The notes beneath the pieces are model-generated. The model did not search any database. It saw nothing but the letters and a program-made list of their open reading frames with translations, and was not told where the DNA came from. Below are positions 19,511 to 62,254 of a DNA stretch of 64,000 nucleotides, piece by piece; the stretch's first letter is position 1; each line of letters starts with the position of its first letter. The translations under genes and the position numbers were made by a program. Source of the stretch: Eledone cirrhosa (lineage: Eukaryota); NCBI GenBank assembly GCA_964016885.1, contig OZ024740.1, forward strand, positions 181,040,001-181,104,000, given 5' to 3'.

Positions 19511-22500
19511 TGCATTTATCTTGCTTTATGTTTATACGAGTTATCACCAAGTCACAACCAGTGGCCTCAAGAGACAACAAGGTCCGCCATGTTCAAGAAA
19601 GAACATACATATTCACACATGCATCCTTAGTGTTTAGACTTGTGATATACTTATATTGACAGGATCTTCCTTAGTATATGGGCAGTTCCCATTAGTACTA
19701 TCTTTTGTATTTCTCCTATACGCGGGTTTCCTGGGATTTGCGATAAGTAGTCGTTATACCCCTTAGGTATCATTCCCAGAGCGCCTACAACCACTGGTAT
19801 TGTTTTAGTTCTCAATTTCCACATTTTTCCAATTTCTATCTCCAGGTCCTTATACTTGCTCAATTTGTCAAATGTTTTTATAGATACATTCTTGTCTATT
19901 GGAAGAGACATATCAATTAGCAGGCATACCCTCCTTTGAAAGTCCTTCAATATTATATCAGGTCTATTTGCATCTATTTTTCGGTCTGTTTGGATGTTAA
20001 AGATCCACAAGATTGAGATGTGATCTTTTTCAAGTATTTGAGGTGGTTGATGTTCCCACCAATTCTTTTGATGGGGCAGGTCAAAATGCTTACACATTAT
20101 CCAATGTATGTATTGTGCAGCTCTGTCATGCCTGTTTAGGTATTCGGTTGGAGCTATAGGACTGCACATTGAAATTATATGGTCAATGGTCTCTGGTTGT
20201 TTTTTGCATACACGGCATAATGGGCTGCACCCATTTTTTATTATGTTGGCTTGGTAATTTTTTGTTGGCAGACACTGATCTTGTGCGGATATAATCAGTC
20301 CTTCAGTCTCCGATTTCAGTCCAGAGGATGCCAACCACTGATGGGTTAAAGTTTTGTCAACATCAGGATTGTTAGCTCGCTCTGGGTATTTTCCATACAG
20401 AGGCTTTTCTTGCCATTTCTTAGCCAGTTTCTGTAGCAGTTCTTTCTTTGCAGTTACTTTTACCTGCTTTGCTTTTTCTGTGTTTTCCATTTCAGCAGTA
20501 AATGGGACTTCTGAAATTTGTAGTCCATTACTGTATCTTTGTGCATCTTTTGTAATGGAATATGATCTTTTGGTGCTTTCGTGTTTCAAAACGAGTTTGA
20601 TCATCCAATCATGTGATTCCCTTAGATATGTGGATAATCCAATTGTTGCAGTTTTCAACGCAATGTCTAACTGGATTAACCCACGTCCTCCTTCTTTCCT
20701 AGGGAGATATATTCTATCTATGTCTGCCTTAGGGTGATGCATTCTGTGCATGGTTAAGAATTTTCGGATTTTTGTATCGAGCCTACGGATCTCTGTGCTT
20801 GACCAGTTGATGACATTGTAACTGTAGGTTACTACTGGTATGGCAAGCGTGTTTATGGCATCGATCCTATTCCTTGCATTCAATTCCGTTCTTAAGATTG
20901 CTCTGACTCTGCGGTAACATTCCTTCCTTATCCTTTCCCTCATTGTCGAGTGCTTGATTCCGTCTCCTTCACAAACACCTAGATATTTGTAAGTTTGTTC
21001 TTGATCAAGCTCACTTATCACGTTCCCCCGATCAAGATTAATGTCTGTACACTTCAGCAGCTTTCCTCTGGTGAACGTTGCTTTGGCGCATTTATCCAGT
21101 CCAAACTCCATTTTAATGTCATCACTGAACTGCTTCACAGTGGATAATAGCCCTAGCAATTGTTCATCATTTTTTGCAAATAGTTTCAGGTCATCCATGT
21201 AGAACAAGTGATTAATGGTTTTGTCATAGACTTTATATCCATGTTTTGTTTCATTGAGCATTTTACTTAATGGTATAAGTGCCATGCAGAATAAAAGCGT
21301 TGATAAAGAGTCACCCTGAAAAATTCCACAATTAATATTAACTTCTCCAGCTTCCAGTGATTTTGTTTCACTATTCAAAAGGAGTGTCGTTTTCCATGTC
21401 TTCATACTAAATGACAAAAACCTCCTGACAACGGGGGATATTTTGAAAATCCCTAAACATTTTTCAATCCAACTGTGCGGCAAACTATCGAATGCTTTTT
21501 TATAATCTATCCAAGCAATTGATAGATTTTTGTGTCTATTATGACAATCTTCCAGTATCATTTTGTTAACCAGAAGCTGACCCTTACAGCCATATGAGCC
21601 TCGTTTACACCCTTTCTGCTCAATAGGAAATAGGTCATTTGTTATCAGGTGGTCATATGTGTATTCAGTTACGACTGATGTTAAAATGTTATACATTGTG
21701 GTCAAGCAAGTTATGGGTCTGTAATTTTTGGGATTGTTTGTCTCATCATTCTACGGAAGCAGGAATGTAATGCCGTTAACTAGCCACGATGGTATCTTTT
21801 CTGGCTCCTTAACTATTTCATTGTAAAGTTGGGCTAACAGCTCATGAGCCTCTGTGAAGGCATTTATCCAAAAGTTTTGTATTTTGTCTTTTCCTGGGGA
21901 TTTCCATTTGCTGGTTTTTCTTAGAGCCAAGGGCAACTGTTCAACTGTTATATTTTCCCATGTTTGTTCCTCAAGGTGAGCTGTATCTTTCATTTGTCTG
22001 TCTATCCATGGGGCATGTATGTTATGAACTTTTTCTTCTTTAGTTTGTTTAACATATTCACCTACTTTATAGTTTGTTAAAATTTCTATGTCAGATGGGA
22101 GAAGGTTTATTTGGCGATTGATGTTCTCTTGCCAAGTAGATTTCTTGTGGGAATTCCTTTGTTTTTTCATCTTCACTCCACATAAGTGAGTGGTGACTTT
22201 AGCCGATGCATAATAGAGATAATTTAAATCAGTAATGTTTAGTTTGTTTGTGAATCTAATGTTTTTGAGAATTATGTTAGTCTTGTGTATTATCTTTTGG
22301 TTCTGTTTGGAGTTCTGGATCTTAGGGAGGGTGTCTCGTTCCCCCATGTCAGATTCTTTCATTTTCATCCATTCGATCATAATTTCATCCTTCAAGTTGT
22401 CAAGTTCATTCTCATTCATTTCTTTATCATTTACAATCTCATTGTTTTAATTTGGAGATTCATCTTGAGCATGCACTCCCTCCACTTTTTCGATCCTTTC

Positions 22501-24141
22501 TTTAATTTGTTCTGTTGTCAGTGATTCCGCCCCAACCCTGGGATTCGAAGTGTTACAATTTATCTCGTTTTCACTGACACATGTTTCATTTTCCCTTCGC
22601 TGACTTTGTGCTAATAGCTTGATCTGATCAATTTCTATATCAGTTAGTAACTTTTTTCTTACAATATTTCTTCGTATATTGGCTAGTTTGTTACTGTCAA
22701 TATAGCCTCTGTTTTCGGGATGTTTTTTTTTCCAGTTGATATATGTCTGTTCTGTATTCGATGTATTTGATGGGTAGTACATGGCAGTGTAGAAAGCCTC
22801 AAGGACTTCTTTATTATCTTCCCTTGACCATTTTTCTCTCTTTTTCTTTGGATTTCTTGGTGGTGAGCATGGAGGGCCAACAGTAGGAGTATTCCGATTA
22901 TGGGAGGTCTCCAGCTCCGAAGTGATGGGAAGGTTTGAACCATTAGCTGATTTTTCGACTCCAGTCTGGTTCCTCTCTGAGGGACGCGGCTCTTTTTTAC
23001 CCGGGTGACGGCCGATCCGGTATGAGATTTTATCATTAGACATTTACTTTATTTTGTCGCGTTTTATTCTTATCCGCCAAGGGGTAATCATTTCGTATTA
23101 CCACTTCTAGAATGAGTGTCAACCAAGACTAGAGGGGTCGTTCTCCCCTAGAGACACGGCTATTCCCCGCCGGCCGCCATCCCGGTATTTCTTGGTAACG
23201 GGGTTTTCTTATTGTTGTTGTTTTTTTAAATTGTTATTATCATGAGTGGTTCCTTAATGTGAGCATTGCTTGGCTTAAGAATGAAATTATTAATAATTGT
23301 CTCCACTCCAGGCACAAGGCCAGCAATCACCCAGTGCATTACAATAATATAATATACTTTTTGCTGTAGTTGCCTGTTATTGTTGTTGGCTATGTCGGTG
23401 GTGGTGCTGGGGCTTTTTATATTGTTGGTGAGGAAGGGGTGAGCCAGCAGTCCCAAAGTTGTTGATGTTGACGTTTGGCCGGTGGCCAGGTCACTAAGTC
23501 AATCTATTTATATCTTTTGCTAGCCTCTCCCTTGTCTAGTGATACCGCCACCTTCCCCTTTCTCTGTCAAGTTAACAGTGGAATAGTGGTGGTAGCAATG
23601 AAGGAGTGGTGACGGCGGCGATGGGATAGTGGTAGCAAGATGATGGATGGGGTGGTGGCGGCGGTGGCGTTGTGGTTCCTGGGTTTTGTGATATGTAGTA
23701 TCTATGAGTTTGTGTTCGTATGTTTAATATATATTGTGTTGACGTATTCCCGTAAAATTGGGATTAAACATTTTGTTAAAATTTGAGACAATAATAATAG
23801 TAATTATTATTACCATGCCGGGATTGATGGTGGTGGTGGTCAAATTGCCGTTATCTGGCTGTTATATTTAGTGTGATGGGATAGGTGGTGTATCAAGTTT
23901 CTGGTGTTGGTGAAATTGCTGTTATTTGGCTGTTCTATATAGTGTAGACAGAGGGTGTTTTCATCCATTTATAAACATTTTCTTTTTTGAATATAAAATG
24001 TATAATACAAAATTGAATATTTGAGCGATATAACAATATAATATGGATCCGAAATTTTATGGGACTTCATTCGGTGGTTTATGCAACATTTGTACTAAGA
24101 ATTGTTATTTCACAATTGATTTAAATATGTTAAAAATCAAA
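19510..24141 (-). mobile_element. Dong family B, near full-length defective copy
   Basis: Colinear with 24168-29036. Nonsense changes at ~22447 and ~21751, plus a 258-bp in-frame deletion at ~22039 (from the offset difference between the copies). Confidence 0.93.
19651..23043 (-). pseudogene. Dong family B ORF, disrupted
   Basis: ORF pieces 22447-23043, 21751-22419 and 19651-21705 match the 1216-aa protein. Confidence 0.92.
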
Positions 24142-24167
24142 ATTATTATTATTATTATTATTATTAT

Positions 24168-27100
24168 TTGCATTTATCTTGCTTTATGTTTATACGAGTT
24201 ATCACCAAGTCACAACCAGTGACCTCAAGAGACAACAAGGTCCGCCATGTTCAAGAAAGAACACACATATTCACACATGCATCCTTAGTGTTTAGACTTG
24301 TGATGTACTTATATTGACAGGATCTTCCTTAGTATATGGGCAGTTCCCATTAGTACTATCTTTTGTATTTCTCCTATGCGCGGGTTTCCTGGGATTTGCG
24401 ATAAGTAGTCGTTAGACCCCTTAGGTATCATTCCCAGAGCGCCTACAACCACTGGTATTGTTTTAGTTCTCAATTTCCACATTTTTCCAATTTCTATCTC
24501 CAGGTCCTTATAGTTGCTCAATTTTTCAAATGTTTTTATAGATACATTCTTGTCTATTGGAACAGACATATCAATTAGCAGGCATACCCTCCTTTGAAAG
24601 TCCTTCAATATTATATCAGGTCTATTTGCATCTATTTTTCGGTCTGTTTGGATGCTAAAGTTCCACAAGATTGAGATGTGATCTTTTTCAATTATGGGAG
24701 GTGGTTGATGCTCCCACCAATTCTTCTGATGGGGCAGGTCAAAATGCTTACACATTATCCAATGTATGTATTGTGCAGCTCTGTCATGCCTGTTTAGGTA
24801 TTCGGTTGGAGCTATAGGACTGCACATTGAAATTATATGGTCAATGGTCTCTGGTTGTTTTTTGCATACACGGCATAATGGGCTGCACCCATTTTTTATT
24901 ATGTTGGCTTGGTAATTTTTTGTTGGCAGACACTGATCTTGTGCGGATATAATCAGTCCTTCAGTCTCCGATTTCAGTCCAGAGGATGCCAACCACTGAT
25001 GGGTTAAAGTTTTGTCAACATCAGGATTGTTAGCTCGCTCTGGGTATTTTCCATACAGAGGCTTTTCTTGCCAATTCTTAGCCAGTTTCTGTAGCAGTTC
25101 TTTCTTTGCAGTTACTTTTACCTGCTTTGCTTTTTCTGTGTTTTCCATTTCAGCAGTAAATGGGACTTCTGAAATTTGTAGTCCATTACTGTATCTTTGT
25201 GCATCTTTTGTAATGGAATATGATCTTTTGGTGCTTTCGTGTTTCAAAACGAGTTTGATCATCCAATCATGTGATTCCCTTAGATATGTGGATAATCCAA
25301 TTGTTGCAGTATTCAACGCAATGTCTAACTGGATTAACCCACGTCCTCCTTCTTTCCTAGGGAGATATATTCTATCTATGTCTGCCTTAGGGTGATGCAT
25401 TCTGTGCATGGTTAAGAATTTTCGGATTTTTGTATCGAGCCTACGGATCTCTGTGCTTGACCAGTTGATGACATTGTAACTGTAGGTTACTACTGGTATG
25501 GCAAGCGTGTTTATGGCATCGATCCTATTCCTTGCATTCAATTCCGTTCTTAAGATTGCTCTGACTCTGCGGTAACATTCCTTCCTTATCCTTTCCCTCA
25601 TTGTCGAGTGCTTGATTCCGTCTCCTTCACAAACACCTAGATATTTGTAAGTTTGTTCTTGATCAAGCTCTCTTATCACGTTCCCCCGATCAAGATTAAT
25701 GTCTGAACTCTTCAGCAGCTTTCCTCTGGTGAACGTTGCTTTGGCGCATTTATCCAGTCCAAACTCCATTTTAATATCATCACTGAACTGCTTCACAGTG
25801 GATAATAGCCCTTGCAATTGTTCATCATTTTTTGCAAATAGTTTCAGGTCATCCATGTAGAACAGGTGATTAATGGTTTTGTCATAGACTCTATATCCAT
25901 GTTTTGTTTCATTGAGCATTTTACTTAATGGTATAAGTGCGATGCAGAATAAAAGCGTTGATAAAGAGTCACCCTGAAAAATTCCACAATTAATGTTAAC
26001 TTCTCCAGCTTCCAGTGATTTTGTTTCACTATTCAAAAGGAGTGTCGTTCTCCATGTCCTCATACTGAATGACAAAAACCTCCTGACAACGGGGGATATT
26101 TTGAAAATCTCTAAACATTTTTCAATCCAACTGTGTGGCAAACTATCAAATGCTTTTTTATAATCTATCCAAGCAATCGATAGATTTTTGTGTCTATTAT
26201 GACGATCTTCCAGTATCATTTTGTTAACCAGAAGCTGATCCTTACAGCCATATGAGCCTCGTTTACACCCTTTCTGCTCAATGGGAAATAGGTCATTTGT
26301 TATCAGGTGGTCATATGTGTATTCAGTTAGGACTGATGTTAAAATGTTATACATTGTGGTCAAGCAGGTTATCGGTCTGTAATTTTTGGGATTGTTTGTC
26401 TCATCATTCTTCGGTAGCAGGAATGTAATGCCGTTAACTAGCCATGATGGTATCTTTTCTGGCTCCTTAACTATTTCATTGTAAAGTTGGGCTAACAGCT
26501 CATGAGACTCTGTGAAGGCATTTATCCAAAAGTTTTGTATTTTGTCTTTTCCTGGGGATTTCCATTTGCTGTTTTTTCTTAGAGCCAAGCGCAGCTGTTC
26601 AACTGTTATATTTTCCCATGTTTGTTCTTCAAGGTGAGCTGTTTCTTTCATTTGTCTGTCTATCCATGGGGCATGTATGTTATGAACTTTTTCTTCGGCA
26701 CAGATCTTTTCCCAGAATTCTTGCACTTCCTCCTTGGGTGGTATTGATTTAGCAGTTATTGTTGACTTACCAATTTTTCTGTAGAAGTTTCTTTGGTTGT
26801 TTTTGAACATATTATTGTCCTTATAGAATCTAGATCGTTTTTCAAAGCGCCTTATACGAGCAGCTTTGGTCGACACTTTTTGCTTGATTGTTTCTATCAA
26901 CATGTCTATGTCACATGTTGATCTTATACTGTACTTTTTTTTCAATTTTCTAAGTTTAGTTTGTTTAACATGTTCACCTACTTTATAGTTTGTTAAAATT
27001 TCTATGTCAGATCGGAGAAGGTTTATTTGGCGATTGATGTTATCTTGCCAAGTAGATTTCTTGTGGGAATTCCTTTGTTTTTTCATCTTCACTCCACATA

Positions 27101-29035
27101 AGTGAGTGGTGACTTTAGCCGATGCATAATAGAGATGATTTAAGTCAGTAATGTTTAGTTTGTTTGTGAATCTAATGTTTTTGAGAATTATGTTAGTCTT
27201 GTGTATTATCTGTTGGTTCTGTTTGGAGTTCTGGATCTTAGGGAGGGTGTCTCGTTCCCCCATGTCAGATTCTTTCATTTTCATCCATTCGATCATAATT
27301 TCATCCTTCAAGTTGGCAAGTTCATTCTCATTCATTTCTTTATCATTTACGATCTCATTATTTTCATTTGGAGTTTCATCCTGAGCATGCACTCCCTCCA
27401 CCTTTTCGCTCCTTTCTTTAATTTGTTCTGTTGCCAGTGATTCCGCCCCAACTCTGGGATTCGAAGTGTTACAGTTTACCTCGTTTTCACTGACACATGC
27501 TTCATTTTCCCTTCGCTGACTTTGTGCTACTAGCTTGATCTGATCAATTTCTATATCAGTTAGTAACTTTTTTCTTACAATATTTCTTCGTATATTGGCT
27601 AGTTTGTTACTGTCAATATAGCCTCTGTTTTCGGGATGTTTCTTTTTCCAGTTGATATATGTTTGCTCTGTATTCGATGTATTTGATGGGTAGTACATGG
27701 CAGTGTAGAAAGCCTCAAGGACTTCTTTATTATCTTCCCTTGACCATTTTTCTCTCTTTTTCTTTGGATTTCTTGGTGGTGAGCATGGAGGGCCAACAGT
27801 AGGAGTATTCCGGTTATGGGAGGTCTCCAGCTCCGGAGTGATGGGAAGGTTTGAACCATTAGCTGATTTTTCGACCCCAGTCTGGTTCCTCTCTGAGGGA
27901 CGCGGCCCTTTTTTACCCGGGTGACGGCCGATCCGGTATGAGATTTCATCATTAGACATCTACTTTATTTTGTCGCGTTTTATCCTTATCCGCCAAGGGG
28001 TAATCTTTTCGTGTTACCACTTCTAGAACGAGTGTCAACCAAGACTAGAGGGGTCGTTCTCCCCTAGAGACATGGCTATTCCCCGCCGGCCGCCATCCCG
28101 GTATTTCTTGGTCACGGGGTTTTCTTTTTTTTTTTTTTTTTTTTTTTAAATTGTTATTATCATGAGTGGTTCCTTAATGTGAGCATTGCGTGGCTTAAGA
28201 ATGAAATTATTAATAATTGTCTCCACTCCAGGCACAAGGCCAGCAATCACCCAGTGCATTACAATAATATAATATACTTTTTGTTGTAGTTGGCTGTTAT
28301 TGCTGCTGGCTATGTCGGTGGTGGTGCCGGGGCTTTTTATATTGTTGGTGAGGAAGGGGTGAGCCAGCAGTCCCATAATTGTTGATGTAGACGTTTGTCC
28401 GTGGCAAGGTCACCAAGTCAATCTATTTATATCTTTTGCTAGCCTCTCTCTTGTCTAGTGCTACCACCACCTTCCCTTTTCTCTCTCAAGTTAACAGGGG
28501 AATAGTGTCAGTAGCATTGAATGAGTGGTGGCGGCGATGATGGATGTGGTGGGGTGGTGGCAGCGGTGGTGTTGTGGTTACTGATATAGTATCTATGAGT
28601 TTGTGTTCGTATGTTTAATATATATTTTCATTATATTTTGTGTTGACATATTCCCGTAAAATTTGAATTAAACATTTTTTAAAATTTGAGACAATAATAA
28701 TAGTAATTATTATTATGATGCCGGTGAAGTTGCCGTTATATTTAGTGTGATGGGATAGGTAGTGTATCAAGTTTCTGGTGTTGGTGAAATTGAAATTGCC
28801 GCTGTTCTATATAGTGTAGACAGAGGGTGTTTTGTTCCATTTATAACCATTTTCTTTTTTTGAATACAAAATATATAATACAAAATTGAATATTTGAGCG
28901 ATACAACAATATAATATGGATCCGAAACTTTATGGGACCTCATTCGGTGCCTTTATGCAACATTTGTGCTAAGAATTGTTCTTTCACAATTGATTTAAAT
29001 ATGTTAAAAATCAAAAAACTTACGGGAGCAATTTC

Positions 29036-46386: not shown

Positions 46387-46444
<58 letters not shown>

Positions 46445-46449
<5 letters not shown>

Positions 46450-46629
46450 TAAGAGGAATTCCAACTTTGTCTGATTTAATCGTTTTATTTACAATCCTTT
46501 AAAATTTATGATGGTATTATAATGAAATAGTATGATAGGATATTAAATGTTAAGTGTTAATTGAACAAGTACTTTCATGCTTTCGCAATCTTCAGGTTCA
46601 TAATGTGTGGTGACAGTCAAGTTTGCAAT

Positions 46630-46634
<5 letters not shown>
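46445..46634 (-). mobile_element. Solo pLTR fragment of the Neptune-like PLE in (TA)n, with HHR at 46562-46600
   Basis: Near-identical to 58168-58361. (TA)n on both sides. Confidence 0.85.
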
Positions 46635-51706: not shown

Positions 51707-52593
51707 AATAAATAAATTATAGAATTATCAAAGTTTTGTTCAAATCATTTAATAGCTGACAATCATTTCTTCCAAACTCTCGTTTCGAGTCATCGGGGCA
51801 TTATCAATGTTTGCACGTATAATTAATCTCCTATTCAACTGACCAATAATATAGATACATATCAATTGATGTTGTAAGCAACAGGGTCGAATGGATGTGA
51901 CATATATTTTACGAGAATTGTACAATAATTGTACAAACATTCAAGTTCAAATTCAAAATAAATCAAATTAAAATCAAAAGCACGGAGTGGAATACATGCA
52001 ACAGATAAAACAAGAGAATAGTCCAATCATTAAAGAGGCATTGAGAAAGTAGTTTTGAGAAAGGTAGTGTACATTAACAATTCATATGCAAGCGTGTGGA
52101 GAGTGAAACTGCGTCAGTCATATACATGAGAAGGAGATAAGCAAAGCTATTATGCAATATAGATGAATAAAGACTGCACTTTAAGCAAATATGTTAATGT
52201 ATTAGAATCTATGGTAGATGCTGTATGCTGACAGTGTTCGAATTTCTGTTTGTTGAGAAACATACAGTTTTTGCAGACTTTTCCATGACATATGTTGAAT
52301 TAAAATGTTAAATATTTTAAGTTAGAGCAATGGATTGTAAATTAGTCTTAATGTATTCATATTCATAAACTATATTTGATCAAGCGGTAAATTTTCCAAT
52401 CGTTAATTTCCGGAAGTGAAAAAGGGGAGCTAATGCGTAAGGGGAGTTAATTATTGTTCAGTTGAATAGGAGGTTAATTATATGTGCAAACATTGATAAT
52501 GCTCCGATGACTCCAAACGAGAGTTTGGAAGAAACCATTGTCAGCTCTTAAATGATTTGAACACAACTTTGATAATTGTATAATTTATTTATT
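51707..52593 (+). mobile_element. Fold-back element with ~144-bp inverted arms and an HHR-like motif
   Basis: 51707-51850 is the reverse complement of 52450-52593. CCGATGA-C-TCCAAAC-GAGA-GTTTGGA-A-GAAA at 52504-52534. Confidence 0.65.
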
Positions 52594-52870: not shown

Positions 52871-52892
52871 ATGATATATATATATATATATA

Positions 52893-53850
52893 AAATATAA
52901 AGATTTACATATACATAAAGTCACAGATATATATGTGGCAACCGGTCACGTTGTGGCTCAATGAAGAATTAATAAATTAAAAAATGAGAGCAATATATCA
53001 TATATCTTGTCCTTAGAATTATTAGATAAAATATATACCATTTCCTCTCCCAATTAGCATAATTAACCATATACAAATTCAATTAGACCAGACTATAAGA
53101 ATAAAGGCTCCTATGAAGAAATATTTGATAAATAACCGAAAGTGGCCTCTTCGCTGTGACCCCAATAGAGTATTTACCCAACATTTCAACAGCATGTAGA
53201 AACTGACGAAATATACCTTCAACCATACACAATTAGGTGTAAATTTAAACTTAGAAGAAACGTGTCCATACCGTAATTACATCTCTACCATAGTTTCGCC
53301 GTATTTTTAGATATCCTACTGTTAGGATAAACCTAGAGTAACAGACTCATCAGGAGACAAACTCAGTTGGACAGTTAATTTTTCCAAAGTGATCGCGCAA
53401 AAAATAGATTCAAAAATGGCAAAGAATCGTGACGTGGCAGTGGACAAGTTAGAAAGAATATGATTAGTTGCTTACGGCGGGTAGGCTGGTTGCTAGAAAG
53501 CGCAGCCCAATATCGCCCAATTGTATCTCAACCCAACGGGAGATTATTAAATATAAAGATTTACATATACATAAAATCACAGATATATATGTGGCAACCG
53601 GTCACGTTGTGGCTCAATGAAGAATTAATAAATTAAATAATCAGAGCAATATATCATAAATCATGTCCTTAGAATTATTAGATAAAATATATACCATTTC
53701 CTCTCCCAATTAGCATAATTAACCATATAAAAAATCAATTAGACCAGGCTATAAGAATAAAGGCTCCTATGAAGAAATATTTGATAAATAACCGAAACGA
53801 AAATGGTATATATCTTATCTAATAATTCTAAGGACATGATTTATGATATA
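52893..53850 (-). mobile_element. Non-coding 656-bp-period partial tandem element with HHR and short inverted arm
   Basis: Direct repeats 52893-53140 and 53549-53796. 53801-53850 is the reverse complement of 53651-53699. (TA)n flanks. Confidence 0.8.
53281..53358 (-). ncRNA. Type-I hammerhead ribozyme
   Basis: GTCTC-CTGATGA-GTCTGT..TATCCTA-acag-TAGGATA..ACGGC-GAAA-CTATGG-TA^GAGAT. Confidence 0.85.
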
Positions 53851-53906
53851 TATATATATATACAATGATATTAAATAAATGTAAACTATATTTATAAATC
53901 CATATT

Positions 53907-53968
53907 TATTCTATTATATATTTTTCACGGGTACCAACAACTTTGGTACGCTCTCATCAGATAAAATA
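53907..53968 (-). ncRNA. Type-I hammerhead ribozyme
   Basis: TATTTTAT-CTGATGA-GAGCGTACCAA..TTGGTACCCGT-GAAA-AATATA-TA-ATAGAATA. Confidence 0.75.
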
Positions 53969-54370
53969 CAAAGAGTGTTTTATAAATGTTGACATAGACA
54001 AGGAAAAACATACCTGATCAGTTAAATATTCCTTGGGTAGTGAGTGAGAATATAGAACGGATTTTTCAAACTTATGGATATTATACCTAAATATATATAA
54101 ATATTATACCTAACTCCGTTATTATAATTTAAAACATTCTCAATTTTAACTACATATTTATTTATATAAAATACAAAATCAATTTCCCTCGTAACTCATT
54201 TTAGAGCAACCACCTAAAACTTGAACTACCTTTTTATTTATTTATTTATCTATCTACTTAAAACACAAAATCAACAATCCCTCGTAACTCATATTATAAA
54301 CAACTAATAATTGTAAAGTATCCCTTTAATAAAATAAATATGCAATAAAAAAAAATATATATATATATAT

Positions 54371-54489: not shown

Positions 54490-54989
54490 TTCTACCTGGA
54501 GTTGCGACCGATAGATAGTTTTAGCAATTGGAAAGACCAACGGAAACATTGTTTCCTCGGTCCGATTTGACGAAAGTCGATCGTTTAAAATATATATATA
54601 TATATATATATATTTAACCCACTACAATATAATAAGCTACACACTTGCAAACATAACTCTCCATATCAATATATACATAGATAAATGTTCGAATATATTT
54701 CCCCGAAATTAACGTTATATGTGGTCTTCCTTGTCCTTTTCCTTCTTCTTATTTTTCCTTTTCTTTTTTCCTTCTTCTTTCTTTCTCTCTTATTATTATA
54801 TATCTAAACTTTCCATAGTGTTTAAAATAACCGTTTTTCAATCATAAAAATCAACCTTATTTACATATTCATTTGCATATTCATCCATAAGTTTGAAAAA
54901 TCAGTTCTATATTCTCACTACCCAAGGAATATTCAACTGAGAAGGTATGTTTTTCCTTGGCTATGTCAACATTTATAAAACACTCTTTG

Positions 54990-55051
54990 TATTTTATCTG
55001 ATGAAAGCATACCAATGTTTTTGGTACCCTTGAAATATATATAGTAGAATA
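54990..55051 (+). ncRNA. Type-I hammerhead ribozyme
   Basis: TATTTTAT-CTGATGA-AAGCATACCAA-tgttt-TTGGTACCCTT-GAAA-TATATA-TA^GTAGAATA. Confidence 0.85.
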
Positions 55052-55183
55052 AATATTGTTTTATAAATATAGTTTCCATTTATTTAATATCATTGAATAT
55101 TTACTCCAGAAATTGTCGCGTGCTCTGAATCAGTTATAAACATTTATACTTGTTGAATTTCCAACAAATTAAATATCCTTCTA

Positions 55184-55960: not shown

Positions 55961-57110
55961 CCTGAAGACAATTGGGATGCATATTCTGTTTAACAAGGAA
56001 TTTGACATGAAACCTGAAGCGCCGAATCTTAAACATATAGATATTGTGTGTATCACTGTGTGTTTGCCTGCGTGTGTATGTACCTGTACGCCTGTGCGAG
56101 TACAAGAAATTGATTTTCCTTAAATGGAATTAATGAAGGATGAACTAAGATATTTTCCCCAAAAATAACTTTTAAGTCACTATCGTGTCGCTTGTTTTGT
56201 TTTCCCCAATCCCCGTTAAATAATCCAAAGACACTGAAATACTACAAGATATAAAGATGAAGAAACGGAACCCTTTTGTTCAAAAGACTCTTAAATGAAA
56301 TTATGCCCAACCAATCTGTGTACTGATGCAAAATGCAGAGGATGAAGGACTTTTTAATTGCATTTGCACAACTAAACTTGAGATACATGCCTTTTAGCGA
56401 AAATGTATTATATCATTAAAGCTATTTTGTTTCCCTTTCTGTTTTATTCTTTTCCCCTGTGTCTCTATACATATAGAAGAAACGATTTAATTGAATTTGT
56501 TTTGAATTTCCTTTTCCCAAAATTATCTGTTCTTTAGAGAATTTATATTTGCAGTTTTTCAGTGATTTATCTTCTTAAATTAATATATTGTTAACTCTTC
56601 CTTCCAATTCTAGTTGTTTAAGAAGGGTATTTCTCAATTCCCATGCATAACTAATAAAGATGATTAATTGCAATAAAAGCTGAACATCATTCAAGTTACA
56701 GAATTTTCTCTTGTTGCCTCCAGTCATTTTACTTTAACTCAACTTTCTTCTATTGAGTATATTTTTATAACATATATAATTTTACTTCGCTCTTTTCGTT
56801 TTTCTTACATTATCTTTGTTTCTTTCATTCTTTTTTTTTATTCATTTAACCAATTATGCATTTATTTTCAGCCTTGGTATGTGTTAACTATCTCATTTTC
56901 ATATTTGCTACAGTATTTCAAAGTTTCATCTATATATTTCTATACGTTGGAAATTACATTATTCATACTTACTTGTTTTATGGTCGTATTTGAGACCTGG
57001 TCAGGCTGAATTGCTAATCGTTTCTACAACCACAGAAATGGGTTACCACTTCTATCTCGCTGCTAACACTTATTAGTCTCAAAAGGAATATATATATATA
57101 TATATATATA

Positions 57111-57197
<87 letters not shown>

Positions 57198-57214
57198 CAC
57201 ACACATATATATAT

Positions 57215-57298
<84 letters not shown>

Positions 57299-57303
<5 letters not shown>

Positions 57304-57534
57304 TAAGAGGAATTCCAACTTTGTTTGATTTACTCGTTTTATTTACAATCCTTTAAAATATATATAATGGTATTATAATGAAATACTATGATAGAATATT
57401 AAATTCTAAGTGTCAATTAACACTTAGAATTTAATATTCTATCATACTATTTCATTATAATACCATTATATATATTTTAAAGGATTGTAAATAAAACGAG
57501 TAAATCAGACAAAGTTGGAATTCCTTTTATTAAT
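57299..57534. repeat. ~115-bp-arm hairpin made of Neptune-like pLTR sequence
   Basis: 57299-57413 is the reverse complement of 57420-57534, with loop CAATTA. The arm matches 58168-58285. Confidence 0.92.
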
Positions 57535-57680
57535 ATAATCTTCTATACACAATCATACACACCCGTGTATATTTACCTATCTATATATATATATAGTAAT
57601 AATAATAAAATTGAAGACTAAAATCCAGAGAGGGCTCGATAAGGAAAATATATATCAAATATATAAGAACCGAAGAGCAA

Positions 57681-58155
57681 ATATTTATTAAAATAACAGA
57701 TTAAAGTTTAAGCATTCGGTCTCCTAGTTAGAATTTTAGTCTACGACTTCTGCTATACCATTTACGTGGTTTTGTCTTTGCACGCTATTGTTCACCACGT
57801 TCCACATATGACTTATTATCTTCGTTTTTTCGTTCATTGCCAGAGAACGTCTCTATGCACCACTTAGAGAACATTAGTCTACGACCTCTTTTATACCATA
57901 AACGTGGTTCTGTCCTTGCACGTTTTTGTTTTTCACCGCTCCTATTAATGACGTATTATTCGTTTTTTCCCGTTCTTTGCCAGCGAACGTCACCATGAAC
58001 CAAAGTATCGTCTTCCTGTCTTCCTCCGGTTGCAACGTTTTTTGAAATATCCAGTTCTGCGTTTACAGATTGACTTTGTTAGTTTCAGAAGATCCCGTTA
58101 AGGGTGAAAGCAGCGATTCTTTGCTTAAACTTTAATCTGTTATTTTAATAAATAT
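57681..58155 (+). mobile_element. Small element with 34-bp inverted arm, internal ~139-bp dimer and degenerate HHR
   Basis: 57681-57714 is the reverse complement of 58122-58155. Dimer 57736-57862 / 57875-58002. CAGAAGA-T-CCC-gttaa-GGG-T-GAAA at 58086-58109. Confidence 0.55.
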
Positions 58156-58288
58156 ATATATATATATATTAATAAGAGGAATTCCAACTTTGTCTGATTT
58201 ACTCGTTTTATTTACAATCCTTTAAAATATATATAATATGGTATTATAATGAAATAGTATGATAGAATATTAAATTCTAAGTGTTAAT

Positions 58289-58327
58289 TGAACAAGTACT
58301 TTCATGCTTTCGCAATCTTCAGGTTCA
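58289..58327 (-). ncRNA. Minimal type-I hammerhead ribozyme
   Basis: TGAAC-CTGAAGA-T-TGC-gaaa-GCA-T-GAAA-GTAC-TT^GTTCA. Palindromic stem III AGTACT. Identical copy at 46562-46600. Confidence 0.85.
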
Positions 58328-58709
58328 TGATATGTGGTGACAGTCGAGTTTGCAATTTTCAACTGTAATGAGATGGGTAAATTTACTACCTTTTATACAT
58401 TTTATACAGAGAAAAGTGGCTCCAGAATGCAAAGCCCTGTAAACTGTATTTCGACCAATCAGTGTGTAGTTTCACTGAATTACTACAGCTGATTGGTTTA
58501 AGCGTCACGGCTGGTTGAGCATGCTAACGACCAATAGTCATACCCAACGTATCAATTGTTTTGCTTTTTGAAATGATGAAAATAGCATGTTCTATTAATC
58601 ATCACCATCAACATCACTTTATTATTATTATTATTGTTGTTGTTGTTGTTGTTGTTGTTGTTAGTGGTCGTGGTCATAGTGGTAGTAGAAGTAATACCCC
58701 TAGGCGTTA

Positions 58710-61213
58710 TTATTGTTCATTTAGCTTGGGTTTGAATTTATCAATAAAATTCTTTTCTTTGATTTTTCTCTTGATTTCACTTGGGCTGTGTAATTTGTAG
58801 AATGGGAATATTATAAATATTCCCTGACCACATGTTGCCAGGTGGCCGCTTAGGGGTATCTGACGGACATTTGGGTCTCTGATTTGTTGACGGTGTACCC
58901 GTGCACGTTCCGATAGTGCATTTCCAGTTTGACCGACATATAGTTCTTCACAATTCGGGCATTTAATGCAGTAAATTAGATTTCTGCTTTTGCAGTTCAT
59001 ATTTGCATTTGGGAATATTTTTCCAGTTTTTGTTTTCATATATTGACCGGCGTGTATGGATTGACATGTGCCGCATCGATTATCATTGCATTTAGATACA
59101 GTGAATGAGTGGTCTTTGTTGTTAAGGTCAAACTTTGCTTTTGTTAGCAATTGCTTCAAATATTTTGGCTGTCTTTTACTAAGAGTCAAAGATCGATCTG
59201 TGATTAAGCCTTTTAATTCATTACTTTGAGCAATGATCGGTAGGTTTTCTTTGGCAGTGTTGAATATATTCTGGTGACATGGGTTGTGTGTCATTATAAA
59301 TGGTATGACCAGTTCTTGGTTTCTTCTTCCTTGGGTTGTTCTAAGTTGTTGTATAGGTATTTTTATAGCCCGCTGTATGCCATTTTCTATAAGTAGAGAT
59401 GGGTATTTTTGTTTGAGCAAAAATTCTCTTAGTTCTGTTAGGCGTTTGTACCTGGTATTCGTATCTTCTACAATGGTACAAATTCTTCTGGCTAGGCAGT
59501 ATGGGATGTTGCGTTTTGTATGAGGTGGATGGCACGACTTAAAATTCAGATATTGATGGGTGTCTGTGTGTTTATAATATATATCCGTGGTAATGGTGGT
59601 GTCGTTTTTGATTATCATTATATCTAGGAATGGTAATTTGGTCCTACTCATTTCTTTTGTGAATTGGAGAGATGGGTGTAGGTTATTCAGGAGGATATTG
59701 AACTCATCCAGAGTATCTAGAGATTCTGTCCAGATGATGAAACAGTCGTCAAGGTATCTCTTCCAAGATTTTTCAATGTACTTACTAAAGTCAGTACTAT
59801 ATTTTTCCTCTATTTCTTGGTAGAGTTGTTGTTCTAATTATCCCATTACAGAGTTCGCGTAAACGGGAGCAAACTTCGTTCCCATCGCTGTGCCTCTAAT
59901 TTGGATGTAATTCTTTCCATTGAAGAAGAAAGTGTTGTTTTCCAGAATAAGTTTAACTGCGTCTAATATAAATGGCGCTGTGAATCTAATGGGAATCACT
60001 TCTCTATGTTTTTCCACCCAGTATTTAACCGCCTTTATTCCTAAATCATGTGTAATGTTGGTGTAAAGGCTTACCACATCAAAACTGAGTAGAAGTGAAT
60101 TCGTTTCCGTGGTTTTGGGAAGATGGGACAGGAAGTCGATATCATCCCGGATGAAACTGGGTATGTGAATACATAGTGGTTTCAAAATAATGTCAACAAA
60201 ATTGCTTAGACGGTGAGTGGGGCATGTTGGACCAGCTATAATAGGTCTAAGTTTTAAGTCTTTTGGGTGTAATAATTTAATGTACTCACTGTTTTGTTCT
60301 CTTACTGCCAGTTGTATTTCTTTTGACTTGTGAACTTTCGGTAGGCCATACAGGTTGCTGGGTTTCGGCTCAAAATTGGTGATGTAGTCTCTTTCCTTAT
60401 CAGTAAATGAGTTGTGGTATTTTGAAGCCAGGTTGTTGATCTTCTTCATGATGTTGTGGTCTATATTTGACGGTATTTCATGATAGAATGTTGTGTCTTT
60501 CAGTTGTTCCTCAACCAAATCCTTGTAGTATTCAGTATCCATTATAACAACTGCACCCCCTTTATCTGCTTGTTTAATTATTTTTGTTTTATCATTTTGT
60601 ATACGTTTAAGTGCAGACATTTCTGATTTGTTAATGTTTGGCCTAACATTAGTATTATGTCTAAGAGGAAATTTAGACAGGATGTCAATGTATTGGTCGA
60701 GATAAATATTTCTTCCTTTTGGCGGAGTGAAATTTGATTTATTCTTTACTAGTGATTCATCACTCTCATTATTTTTGGTGGATTGGCAGTATCGGTAGAG
60801 GGTCAGACACCATGCTTTCCAGCATAGTTACGTCCCTTTACGATCTGAGTTCAAATCCCGCCGAGGTTGACTTTGCCTTTCATCCTTACGAGGTCGATAA
60901 AATAAAGTACCAGTAATGCACTGGAATAATTGATGGCCTTGTGCCAAAAGTAGAAACAATTATTTTTATCAGCGAATAATTCTACAAGACGTAATTTTCG
61001 ACAGAATTCTTGGGTATCCTCCTTCAGTTCTTGGTGGTTGACTGTTGGAGTCGGTGTAAATGTCAGTCCTTTTGACAGAATTTGCATTTCATCATTGTCA
61101 AGATCTCTTTTAGATAAATTAATTATTTTAGGATCTACGTGTACAGCTGTTTTGGGTATGTTTCCTCCTGGAGTTTTTCTTTTTCCAGTTTTTGTTGTCC
61201 TGACGTTAAAAAA
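58710..61213 (-). pseudogene. PLE RT + GIY-YIG ORF2, broken by one stop (59838) and a SINE insertion
   Basis: Removing the SINE plus one TSD restores ..FADKNNESDESLVKNKSNFTPPKG..EMSALKR. The TAA at 59838-59840 is in frame with downstream RYLDD. Confidence 0.9.
60777..60958 (+). mobile_element. Full-length SINE with 9-bp TSD
   Basis: TGGCAGTATCGG (A-box-like), GAGTTCAAATCC (B-box), core GACTTTGCCTTTCATCCTTACGAGGTCGATAAAATAAAGTACCAG (resembles the Meta-type SINE domain, from recall). TSD ATTATTTTT at 60768-60776 and 60959-60967. Confidence 0.92.
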
Positions 61214-62254
61214 TGAATTTTTCTCTGTTCAGGATTTATATCCCTGTTGGTGTTCGCTTGATGAACTTTTGGTCGTGATATTATATTTGGTTTCGTTATG
61301 TATTTTGTCCTATTTTTGGTATTCTGTATATTATTTTTCCTCCTGTTAGCATTATTTTTAACATTCTGGGAAAATGACCTAGGTTTGCTTTCAGGTTTAG
61401 ATCGTTTTTTCGTCCAGTTTCTTGTGGGCAATCTCTGTTGAGATCTTGAGAGTGATCTGGTTATACTACGTTTTGTTTCCACATTCCTTGTTGGTAGTCT
61501 CTGTTGAGATCTTGAGAATGATCTCCTGGTTTTACTACTTCTCATGGTCTGGTCAAAGGAATACCTATCGTGTTTGTGCTTTTTGTTCATGTTGTGTGCG
61601 ATAGGGTGTTTTTGTAGAAAAAGCGAAGAGTTATTACCGTAGTTCTTCTTTGATTCAAGGTAAGGTGAGTGTTTGTGTTGGCATGTGTTCTGGCGTATGT
61701 TGTGTTGATGAGATTGTCCACTTTTAATGCTTTTTCTCAGGGTTCCAGAGTCTTTACCGTAATTTGCAGCATATTCATCGAGAAATAATTGTTTCTGCTG
61801 CCATACCTTTCTTGATTTGTTTTCTTCTTTTGAGATATCTCCGATCCATAGTTCTCGTAGTTTTTCAGCTATAATACCAGTCGTTATCTTTGAAATTTCA
61901 ACTTCAATTTGGTCATCAATAGCTTCATATTTGGCTTTACATTCAGAAATGGAGATGTCGGTCCTGGATTTTGTCAATGTAAGTTCCCATCGGAGTTTTG
62001 TTTCTTCTTCTGGTTCTCCTGCAATTTCTGTAATTAGGTATTTACGAGGGAGTATGGGTGCCGTTAGAGAGAGCCATTTCGAATGTGTTTCGACATATTT
62101 TTCGCATCTGTACGCTTTCCAGAAATTTTCTTTTCTTATGTTAAGGAATTTTTTCCATGTCTTCCACATTTCTTTTCTTATTCGATGTGTTTTGTTTTCC
62201 AAATTTCTTTCGTTTATTTCTGACATCCAAGGGGGTTGTGGTAGGCTTTCTCTG
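61135..62254 (-). CDS. PLE upstream ORF1, 5'-truncated: helical/charged N-half and basic RS-rich C-half
   Basis: Open for ~370 codons after the (TA)n. Contains the repeat RS(F/L)[11 protein letters not shown] twice (60-nt period). Overlaps the RT frame at -1. Confidence 0.7.

Follow-up and report, generated by a model that had tools for sequence, protein, structure and literature searches.

In the EN+ Penelope-like elements (PLEs) of Adineta vaga, inverted pLTRs, a one-sided tail, TATA/Inr signals and palindromic junctions have been described, and the available text of the report proposes self-priming (PMC3846280). For the Poseidon PLE of Anolis carolinensis it was found in vitro that both target strands are nicked and extended and that reverse transcription starts at two sites flanking the tail; according to the accessible part of that report, the hammerhead ribozyme (HHR) was dispensable in vitro and RNA reads ending at the HHR cut site were absent (PMC11167929). 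The minimal type-I hammerheads of metazoan PLEs are of low activity, and in vivo evidence is stated as lacking in the accessible part of PMC4209133, while the accessible text of PMC8557442 calls the function of the HHR in PLEs unclear. Two questions stand open in the available portions of PMC8557442, PMC4209133 and PMC11167929, namely how inverted pLTRs with a one-sided tail are formed and whether the hammerhead cuts in vivo. The thousands of young junctions of the family described here make both questions countable.

The window, i.e. the whole stretch of 64,000 nt analysed here from Eledone cirrhosa, contains, on its minus strand, an EN+ Penelope-like retrotransposon and, 3' of this element, a hairpin insertion. 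The C-terminal part of the reverse transcriptase (RYLDD), a CX4CX2C linker and a GIY-YIG endonuclease (PF01541, E 1.2e-6) are encoded at 58710-59837 (minus); the N-terminal region and the rest of the reverse transcriptase (DKG, GTAMGT) follow at 59838-62250 (minus), with a stop at 59838-59840, an insertion at ~60777-60958 and a 5' truncation into (TA)n. The DKG, GTAMGT and RYLDD motifs were recognised by eye; the reverse transcriptase pieces gave no matches in Pfam and PDB searches, and a phage tblastn search gave none either. A reverse transcriptase and, C-terminal to it, a GIY-YIG endonuclease in one ORF (broken in the window copy), together with pLTRs in direct or inverted orientation and an optional tail at one end, is the organisation by which EN+ PLEs are recognised, and the present family shows it. 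The insertion in the ORF, which is ~180 nt long and possibly SINE-like, is absent from L168/L169 and frequent at other loci. At L169 (290-620) and L153 the full-length element reaches an ATG, past the tail, by way of a short (TA) run, after which the sequence joins that at window position 62250, which supplies the 5' part missing from the window. The linker CNDNRCGTC before the GIY-YIG domain and the (TA)n flanks fit the definition of Neptune in the available text of PMC8557442. A CX2-5CxxC linker is common to Neptune and Nematis, and the element can probably be called Neptune-like from its linker combined with microsatellite targeting.

Positions in the pLTR are counted from +1, window position 58293 on the minus strand, which is the first base past the predicted ribozyme cut (-1 is 58294, zero is skipped). 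The neighbour's 3' pLTR carries a type-I minimal hammerhead-like motif at 58289-58327 (minus) with a predicted cut at 58294^58293 (CUU^G). It consists of stem I (UGAAC/GUUCA), CUGAAGA, a 3-bp stem II with a GAAA loop, GAAA, the palindrome AGUACU and CUU^G. The part beyond the cut, +1 to +129, occupies 58165-58293 (minus), is tail-less and ends in (TA)n. The core (CUGANGA, GAAA and NUH with stems I and II) is conserved across 78 aligned arms, in which the subfamily-diagnostic sites (-53, -40..-36, +17/18, +32 and +47) all fall outside the ribozyme; a further subfamily indel of the pLTR is found at +66. Cofolding pairs two copies through AGUACU, as expected of a palindromic stem III. As far as the available text of PMC4209133 goes, the motif resembles the metazoan PLE hammerheads in CUGANGA, GAAA, NUH, the short stem I, the palindromic dimerisable stem III and the low activity expected, but differs from them in stem II, which is short and has U.U at both positions of the conserved closing pair G10.1-C11.1. 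The motif is a non-canonical variant, and a search of Rfam at gathering and E-value thresholds returned no hammerhead match, only three chance matches with E ~7. The cleaved RNA would begin with GUUCAAUU and carry a 5'-OH.

Upstream of the motif, a TATAAAA (58391-58397, minus) lies 31 nt above a sharp boundary at -73, the A at 58366, which opens a short 5' hairpin (58340-58366, minus) and is the dominant 5' boundary of the family; this position is likely the transcription start. A solo tail-less pLTR of the same family at 46444-46633 (minus), which follows (TA)n, starts at -67. We also asked whether -73 carries an additional, cap-templated C; with C in 5 and G in 9 of 100 listed rows (by eye), the sequences are not diagnostic.

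The hairpin 57299-57534 is a palindrome whose arms adjoin with no spacer (locus L036). Its tail-less arm (57299-57412, minus) runs from pLTR position +11 to the 3' end and then into the (TA)n microsatellite target, which flanks it at 57089-57298, and its tailed arm (57413-57536, plus) runs from +3 to the 3' end and holds the loop. A PLE tail of ~45 nt and constant sequence follows the right arm only (57537-57582, plus). The initial annotation had described the hairpin as it is found here but had overlooked the tail. It had also noted that the junction is one A short of a predicted fold-back, and this is confirmed: the minus strand at 57427-57406 reads CTAAGTGTTAATTGACACTTAG, with the apex CTAAGTG-TTAATTGA-CACTTAG. 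The arms differ from each other at 3 stem positions and in the loop, and both lack a 2-nt indel of the neighbouring element. Since the hairpin also lies 3' of the neighbour, it represents a young Neptune-like Penelope element that was inserted separately, and not a 5' inversion of the neighbour copy. The identical junction is present at 10 of the 49 typed young-subfamily loci and in 5 of the 46 older-subfamily matches, and with this form among the recurring junctions the window junction is a member of a recurrent class rather than a later mutation. The junction is microhomology-mediated and taken alone cannot place the cDNA end at +1.

A 25-nt pLTR anchor has 7,245 exact matches in the 3.0-Gb assembly, and the pattern counts given here are exact-match lower bounds. 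As an unselected sample we used the first 100 anchor matches (first 56 Mb of C1), with no structural selection. A separate initial set of 30 loci, for which sequence upstream of the cut was required, was excluded from the end frequencies but is included in the -73 hairpin set and in the list of pairs. The 5' ends of 59 of the 100 unselected arms are at -74..-62, and 18 arms extend beyond -238. Another 8 arms (7 loci) end at -5..+9 where 1.4 are expected (P 7e-4 for 7 loci). The remaining ends are scattered at ~0.1 per base, which puts the cut zone at about fivefold over background.

Apexes of hairpins were compared by patterns with an equal 30-nt gap range. At the predicted cut there are 58 matches (57 loci) in the young subfamily and 46 in the older one, ~103 in total, and the reversed control patterns for both subfamilies gave no match genome-wide. 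A downstream window (+43..+58), which contains a perfect 8-bp palindrome, has 32 apexes, 3 of them seemingly unrelated, an upstream window (-25..-40) has 4, and the window at -73 has 1,228. The enrichment at the cut that the initial annotation had anticipated among genomic copies is thus present, but the main peak is elsewhere; its further claim that PLE inversions depend on the ribozyme is not supported, given the apexes at -73 and the 59 unselected arms with ends in the same region. Inversions arise generally where the RNA 5' end is reached, and most of them need no ribozyme cut.

Junctions could be typed at 49 of the 57 young cut loci. The predicted fold-back junction does exist and was found at 14 of them, the form that is one A short at 10, the perfect TTAATTAA at 7 and TTAATTGAACAATTAA at 5, while 13 have other junctions. 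Among the latter are 5 blunt stops at +1, and one locus, L141, is a perfect palindrome in which both arms end at +1. In the older subfamily 7 of 46 apexes (by eye) are at AGTACT, past the cut, which shows that palindromes do capture longer cDNAs, and these apexes count against a pure cleavage reading. At another locus (L031/L168-169) two ~4 kb elements, 98% identical, are arranged head-to-head with the apex at the cut and a tail at one outer end, a structure that would be expected if the 5' ribozyme of a transcript, and no other, had cut.

As a rule, the hairpins have exactly one tailed arm. This holds for 76 of 82 hairpins (46 of 49 young cut hairpins, 12 of 13 older ones and 18 of 20 at the start site; in the older subfamily 15 of the 46 were fetched and 2 of these were incomplete), and only 5 of 82 have no tail on either arm. 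A single tail is found in 40 of an overlapping set of 42 inverted pairs, including pairs with an apex as deep as 400-1,100 nt into the element. The loop has no preferred side: of 33 simple junctions, 17 carry it on the tailed and 16 on the tail-less arm. In 14 strongly asymmetric pairs the longer arm is the tailed one in 10 and the tail-less one in 4; the 4 favour two separately primed cDNAs, and the 10 count against them. The commonest junctions at -73, AAC-A-GTT (8) and AAC-T-GTT (2), have 1-nt centres that are impossible by fold-back and would fit annealing of two ACTGT ends with a T.T mismatch between them. The combination of the one-tail rule, loops on either arm and 1-nt centres favours two first-strand cDNAs joined 3' to 3', and we judge it likely that inversions in this family arise by such twin priming rather than by self-priming.

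Self-priming was suggested by the initial annotation. Spelled out, it would mean that a single tailed cDNA is extended as far as the cut, folds back to serve as its own template up to +130 and is then joined to the target, while the loops on tail-less arms would be due to later inversion between the repeats. The predicted junction is indeed the commonest class, MFE folding of a cDNA that ends at +1 does form the GTT/AAC fold-back, and the window copy has its loop on the tailed arm. Short templated insertions after the cDNA end are seen at ~9 of 95 junctions (by eye; e.g. L039, L134, L153, L160 and L215), so a minority of junctions do show snap-back synthesis as one step of their formation. A snap-back at full-length cDNA ends is also known for R2, where a cDNA that has reached the RNA 5' end goes on to prime further synthesis, as described in the available part of PMC11371274. 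The two arms share a common subfamily haplotype in 41 of 45 cases, against 11.3 in shuffled pairs; a match so far above chance indicates that both arms come from one RNA or one source locus, but it is also expected under fold-back and alone separates neither model. Snap-back requires, however, that the arm with the loop always bears the 3' extension, which holds for the window copy taken by itself but not for the family, with the loop on the tail-less arm in 16 of 33 simple junctions. With 48 of the 100 unselected arms tail-less and 52 tailed, self-priming predicts many hairpins with no tail, yet these are the 5 of 82 mentioned above. The even distribution of loops (17:16) is found in young copies, 26 of 58 of which have identical arms, and long loops (20-310 nt) are on the tail-less arm in 4 pairs. 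Neither the 1-nt centres nor the blunt palindrome of L141 can be fold-backs. Only an inversion of loops between the repeats after insertion would reconcile fold-back with these counts, and we consider self-priming unlikely as the general mechanism.

Our main reading is that the head-to-head insertion was made by two cDNAs primed at opposite (TA)n strands and joined at the RNA 5' end, which at this locus was likely produced by the hammerhead; we assign it a probability of about 0.57. At a nicked (TA)n target the two cDNAs would be primed on opposite strands, at the two ends of the tail, and both would extend to the RNA 5' end and then be joined by microhomology. The majority of transcripts would be uncut and give the equivalent structure at -73, while a minority would be cut at +1. 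Because the two cDNA 3' ends are identical in sequence they could pair only at a local near-palindrome, for which AATT (+5..+8) is a candidate, and trimming and mismatch repair could then lead to the three common junctions, i.e. the predicted one, the one that is an A short and the perfect palindrome. An exonuclease that removes dinucleotides from a 5'-OH end was considered as a possible source of the +3 ends and is not needed. In all this the anatomy, the breakpoint counts, the one-tail rule, the loops on either arm and the common haplotype are observations from genomic DNA, from which cleavage, the start site, twin priming and the joining step are inferred. In a more specific form of this proposal, a coordinated double TPRT, a dimeric protein would prime one cDNA per tail boundary on one transcript and the cDNAs would be sealed head-to-head at the RNA 5' end; the inverted pLTRs would then be a fossil 5'-RACE, in which it is recorded that a non-canonical minimal hammerhead cuts a few percent of the templates in vivo. 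For this complete form we regard the odds as even.

The proposal can be set beside what is known of related systems. L1 twin priming likewise yields two cDNAs, one from each target strand, but these are copied from different parts of the RNA; here both would be copies of one and the same part, with their 3' ends meeting. With the EN+ PLEs, so far as the available texts of PMC3846280 and PMC8557442 describe them, the family shares head-to-head pLTRs, a palindromic junction, a tail at one end, TATA/Inr and microsatellite targets; the difference is that there self-priming on an antisense template is proposed and apexes are unmapped to start or cut, whereas here two sense-templated cDNAs are favoured. 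The likeness to Poseidon lies in internal initiation of reverse transcription flanking the tail, extension of both strands, an AT-rich target and an HHR in the pLTR, but in the accessible part of PMC11167929 cleavage is unneeded and inverted insertions are not treated, whereas here the genomic ends suggest a minor cleaved class. The portions available of bioRxiv 10.64898/2026.07.22.740005 and PMC6431247 contain nothing on PLE apexes, and a search of the openly accessible literature listed no paper that maps PLE apexes to start or cut or that proposes double priming. The junctions of the present family point to a single mechanism for inversion and tail, and to a real but minor role of the ribozyme. 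With such a read-out of apexes and ends, an assembly is enough to locate start sites and ribozyme activity in any PLE family.

The cut can be tested independently of the hairpin on arms whose flanks consist of A and T only. The first AT-flank pattern gave 27 rows, against 7 for the reversed control. Within these 27 rows (by eye) 14 arms end at -2..+1, 4 at -5..-3 and 1 at -9..-6, and the other 8 are hairpins, more 3' ends or likely chance. Five of the 14 ends are blunt at +1 (4 without the doubtful L180), and with the doubtful L180 and L188 removed the comparison stands at 12 vs 5 (P 7e-4). Elsewhere AT-flanked ends number 8 rows at -19..-10, 9 at +2..+4 (control 7) and 27 at +5..+11, and the start-site class has 709. 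Across the cut, 50 rows at 13 positions face 13 rows at 17 positions, i.e. 3.8 vs 0.8 per base, or approximately fivefold. The profile is a step at the cut rather than a spike, as per position +1 has no excess of ends over +2..+11 (P 0.40), and the spread of the ends at the cut resembles the 10-nt spread below -73. On the basis of the cut-site apexes and of this step in the non-inverted ends we consider it likely that the ribozyme cuts in vivo, in keeping with the initial annotation, and it is fairly likely that the window hairpin was copied from a cut RNA. Points against cleavage are the U.U at 10.1-11.1, the 3-bp stem II and the CUU triplet of the motif with its lack of an Rfam match, the step-like profile, the 7 rows of each of the two reversed controls and the dispensable HHR of Poseidon in vitro. 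The cut probably makes a minor class of template 5' ends, which relative to the start-site class amounts to ~2% in solos and ~8% in hairpins. The ends of RAD reads at 58286 and 57519-57522 coincide with AATT/GAATTC motifs, point to library cuts and were discounted as evidence. Internal deletions that remove the ribozyme were also observed, at L104, where the deletion ends exactly at +1, and as a joint 58288-58338 in runs X1 and X3; a deletion of the L104 type is possibly a template jump from cut RNA.

The same ends could be explained with no cleavage at all if cDNAs of uncut RNA end at random points, through stops or trimming, and are then caught by the near-palindromes AATT and AGTACT and by AT-rich homology to (TA)n. 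The window junction fits any cDNA end at or beyond +3, the AGTACT apexes of the older subfamily are of this kind, the AT-rich downstream window has more hairpins than the GC-richer upstream one (32 vs 4), and the step at the cut may partly track base composition. Nevertheless, the downstream window with its perfect 8-bp palindrome has one third of the hairpins found at the cut, and the palindrome-free, non-inverted ends prefer -2..+1 over -5..-3 (14 vs 4) despite the better TA homology at -5..-3. Blunt +1 ends, moreover, occur in solos as well as in 5 of 49 hairpins. We find an origin without cleavage distinctly unlikely.

It is also conceivable that the +1 boundary is a second start site, the end of a splice donor or the point where the reverse transcriptase stalls on the folded ribozyme. 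Stem I and the dimeric stem III flank +1, and positions +1 and +2 are GT. On the other hand, stronger hairpins (the 5' stem and stem II) show no peak and a stall at stem I is expected at ~+6, a TATA is absent 31 nt above +1, GTTCAA is a poor match to the donor consensus, and L031 extends from +1 through the ORF; we regard this group of explanations as very improbable. Finally, no contig or RAD-seq read among those searched spans the locus, but a sequencing or assembly fold-back chimera, which the initial annotation had named as a refuting outcome, can be dismissed, since the arms differ at 3 sites and in their flanks, a single arm is tailed, the same kinds of junction are found again at dozens of loci, with the one-tail rule strictly kept, and the form that is one A short occurs at at least 15 loci; the hairpin is genuine.

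Other repeats in the window have a comparable layout. A second family at 57593-58158 is of similar anatomy, with a short arm with a ~90-nt extension inverted relative to a longer arm terminating in (TA)n; several copies of this family start near 57710-57715, and a CAGAAGA...GAAA motif is present at 58086-58109 without a fitting stem I. A third family forms head-to-head pairs (53855-54044 / 54914-55103 and ~6256 / ~6824) with hammerhead-like CTGATGA...GAAA motifs. In the pair 53855-54044 / 54914-55103 one arm terminates in (TA)n, while the other continues for ~90 nt up to (TA)n, and this pair is a possible independent case of the one-tail rule. Long open frames of 699, 231, 198 and 1216 aa at 19651-27959 (minus) belong to what is probably another retroelement. 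Beside (TA)n there are also an inverted pair at 51707-51850 / 52450-52593 (93%) and a direct pair at 52889-53141 / 53545-53797 (96%).
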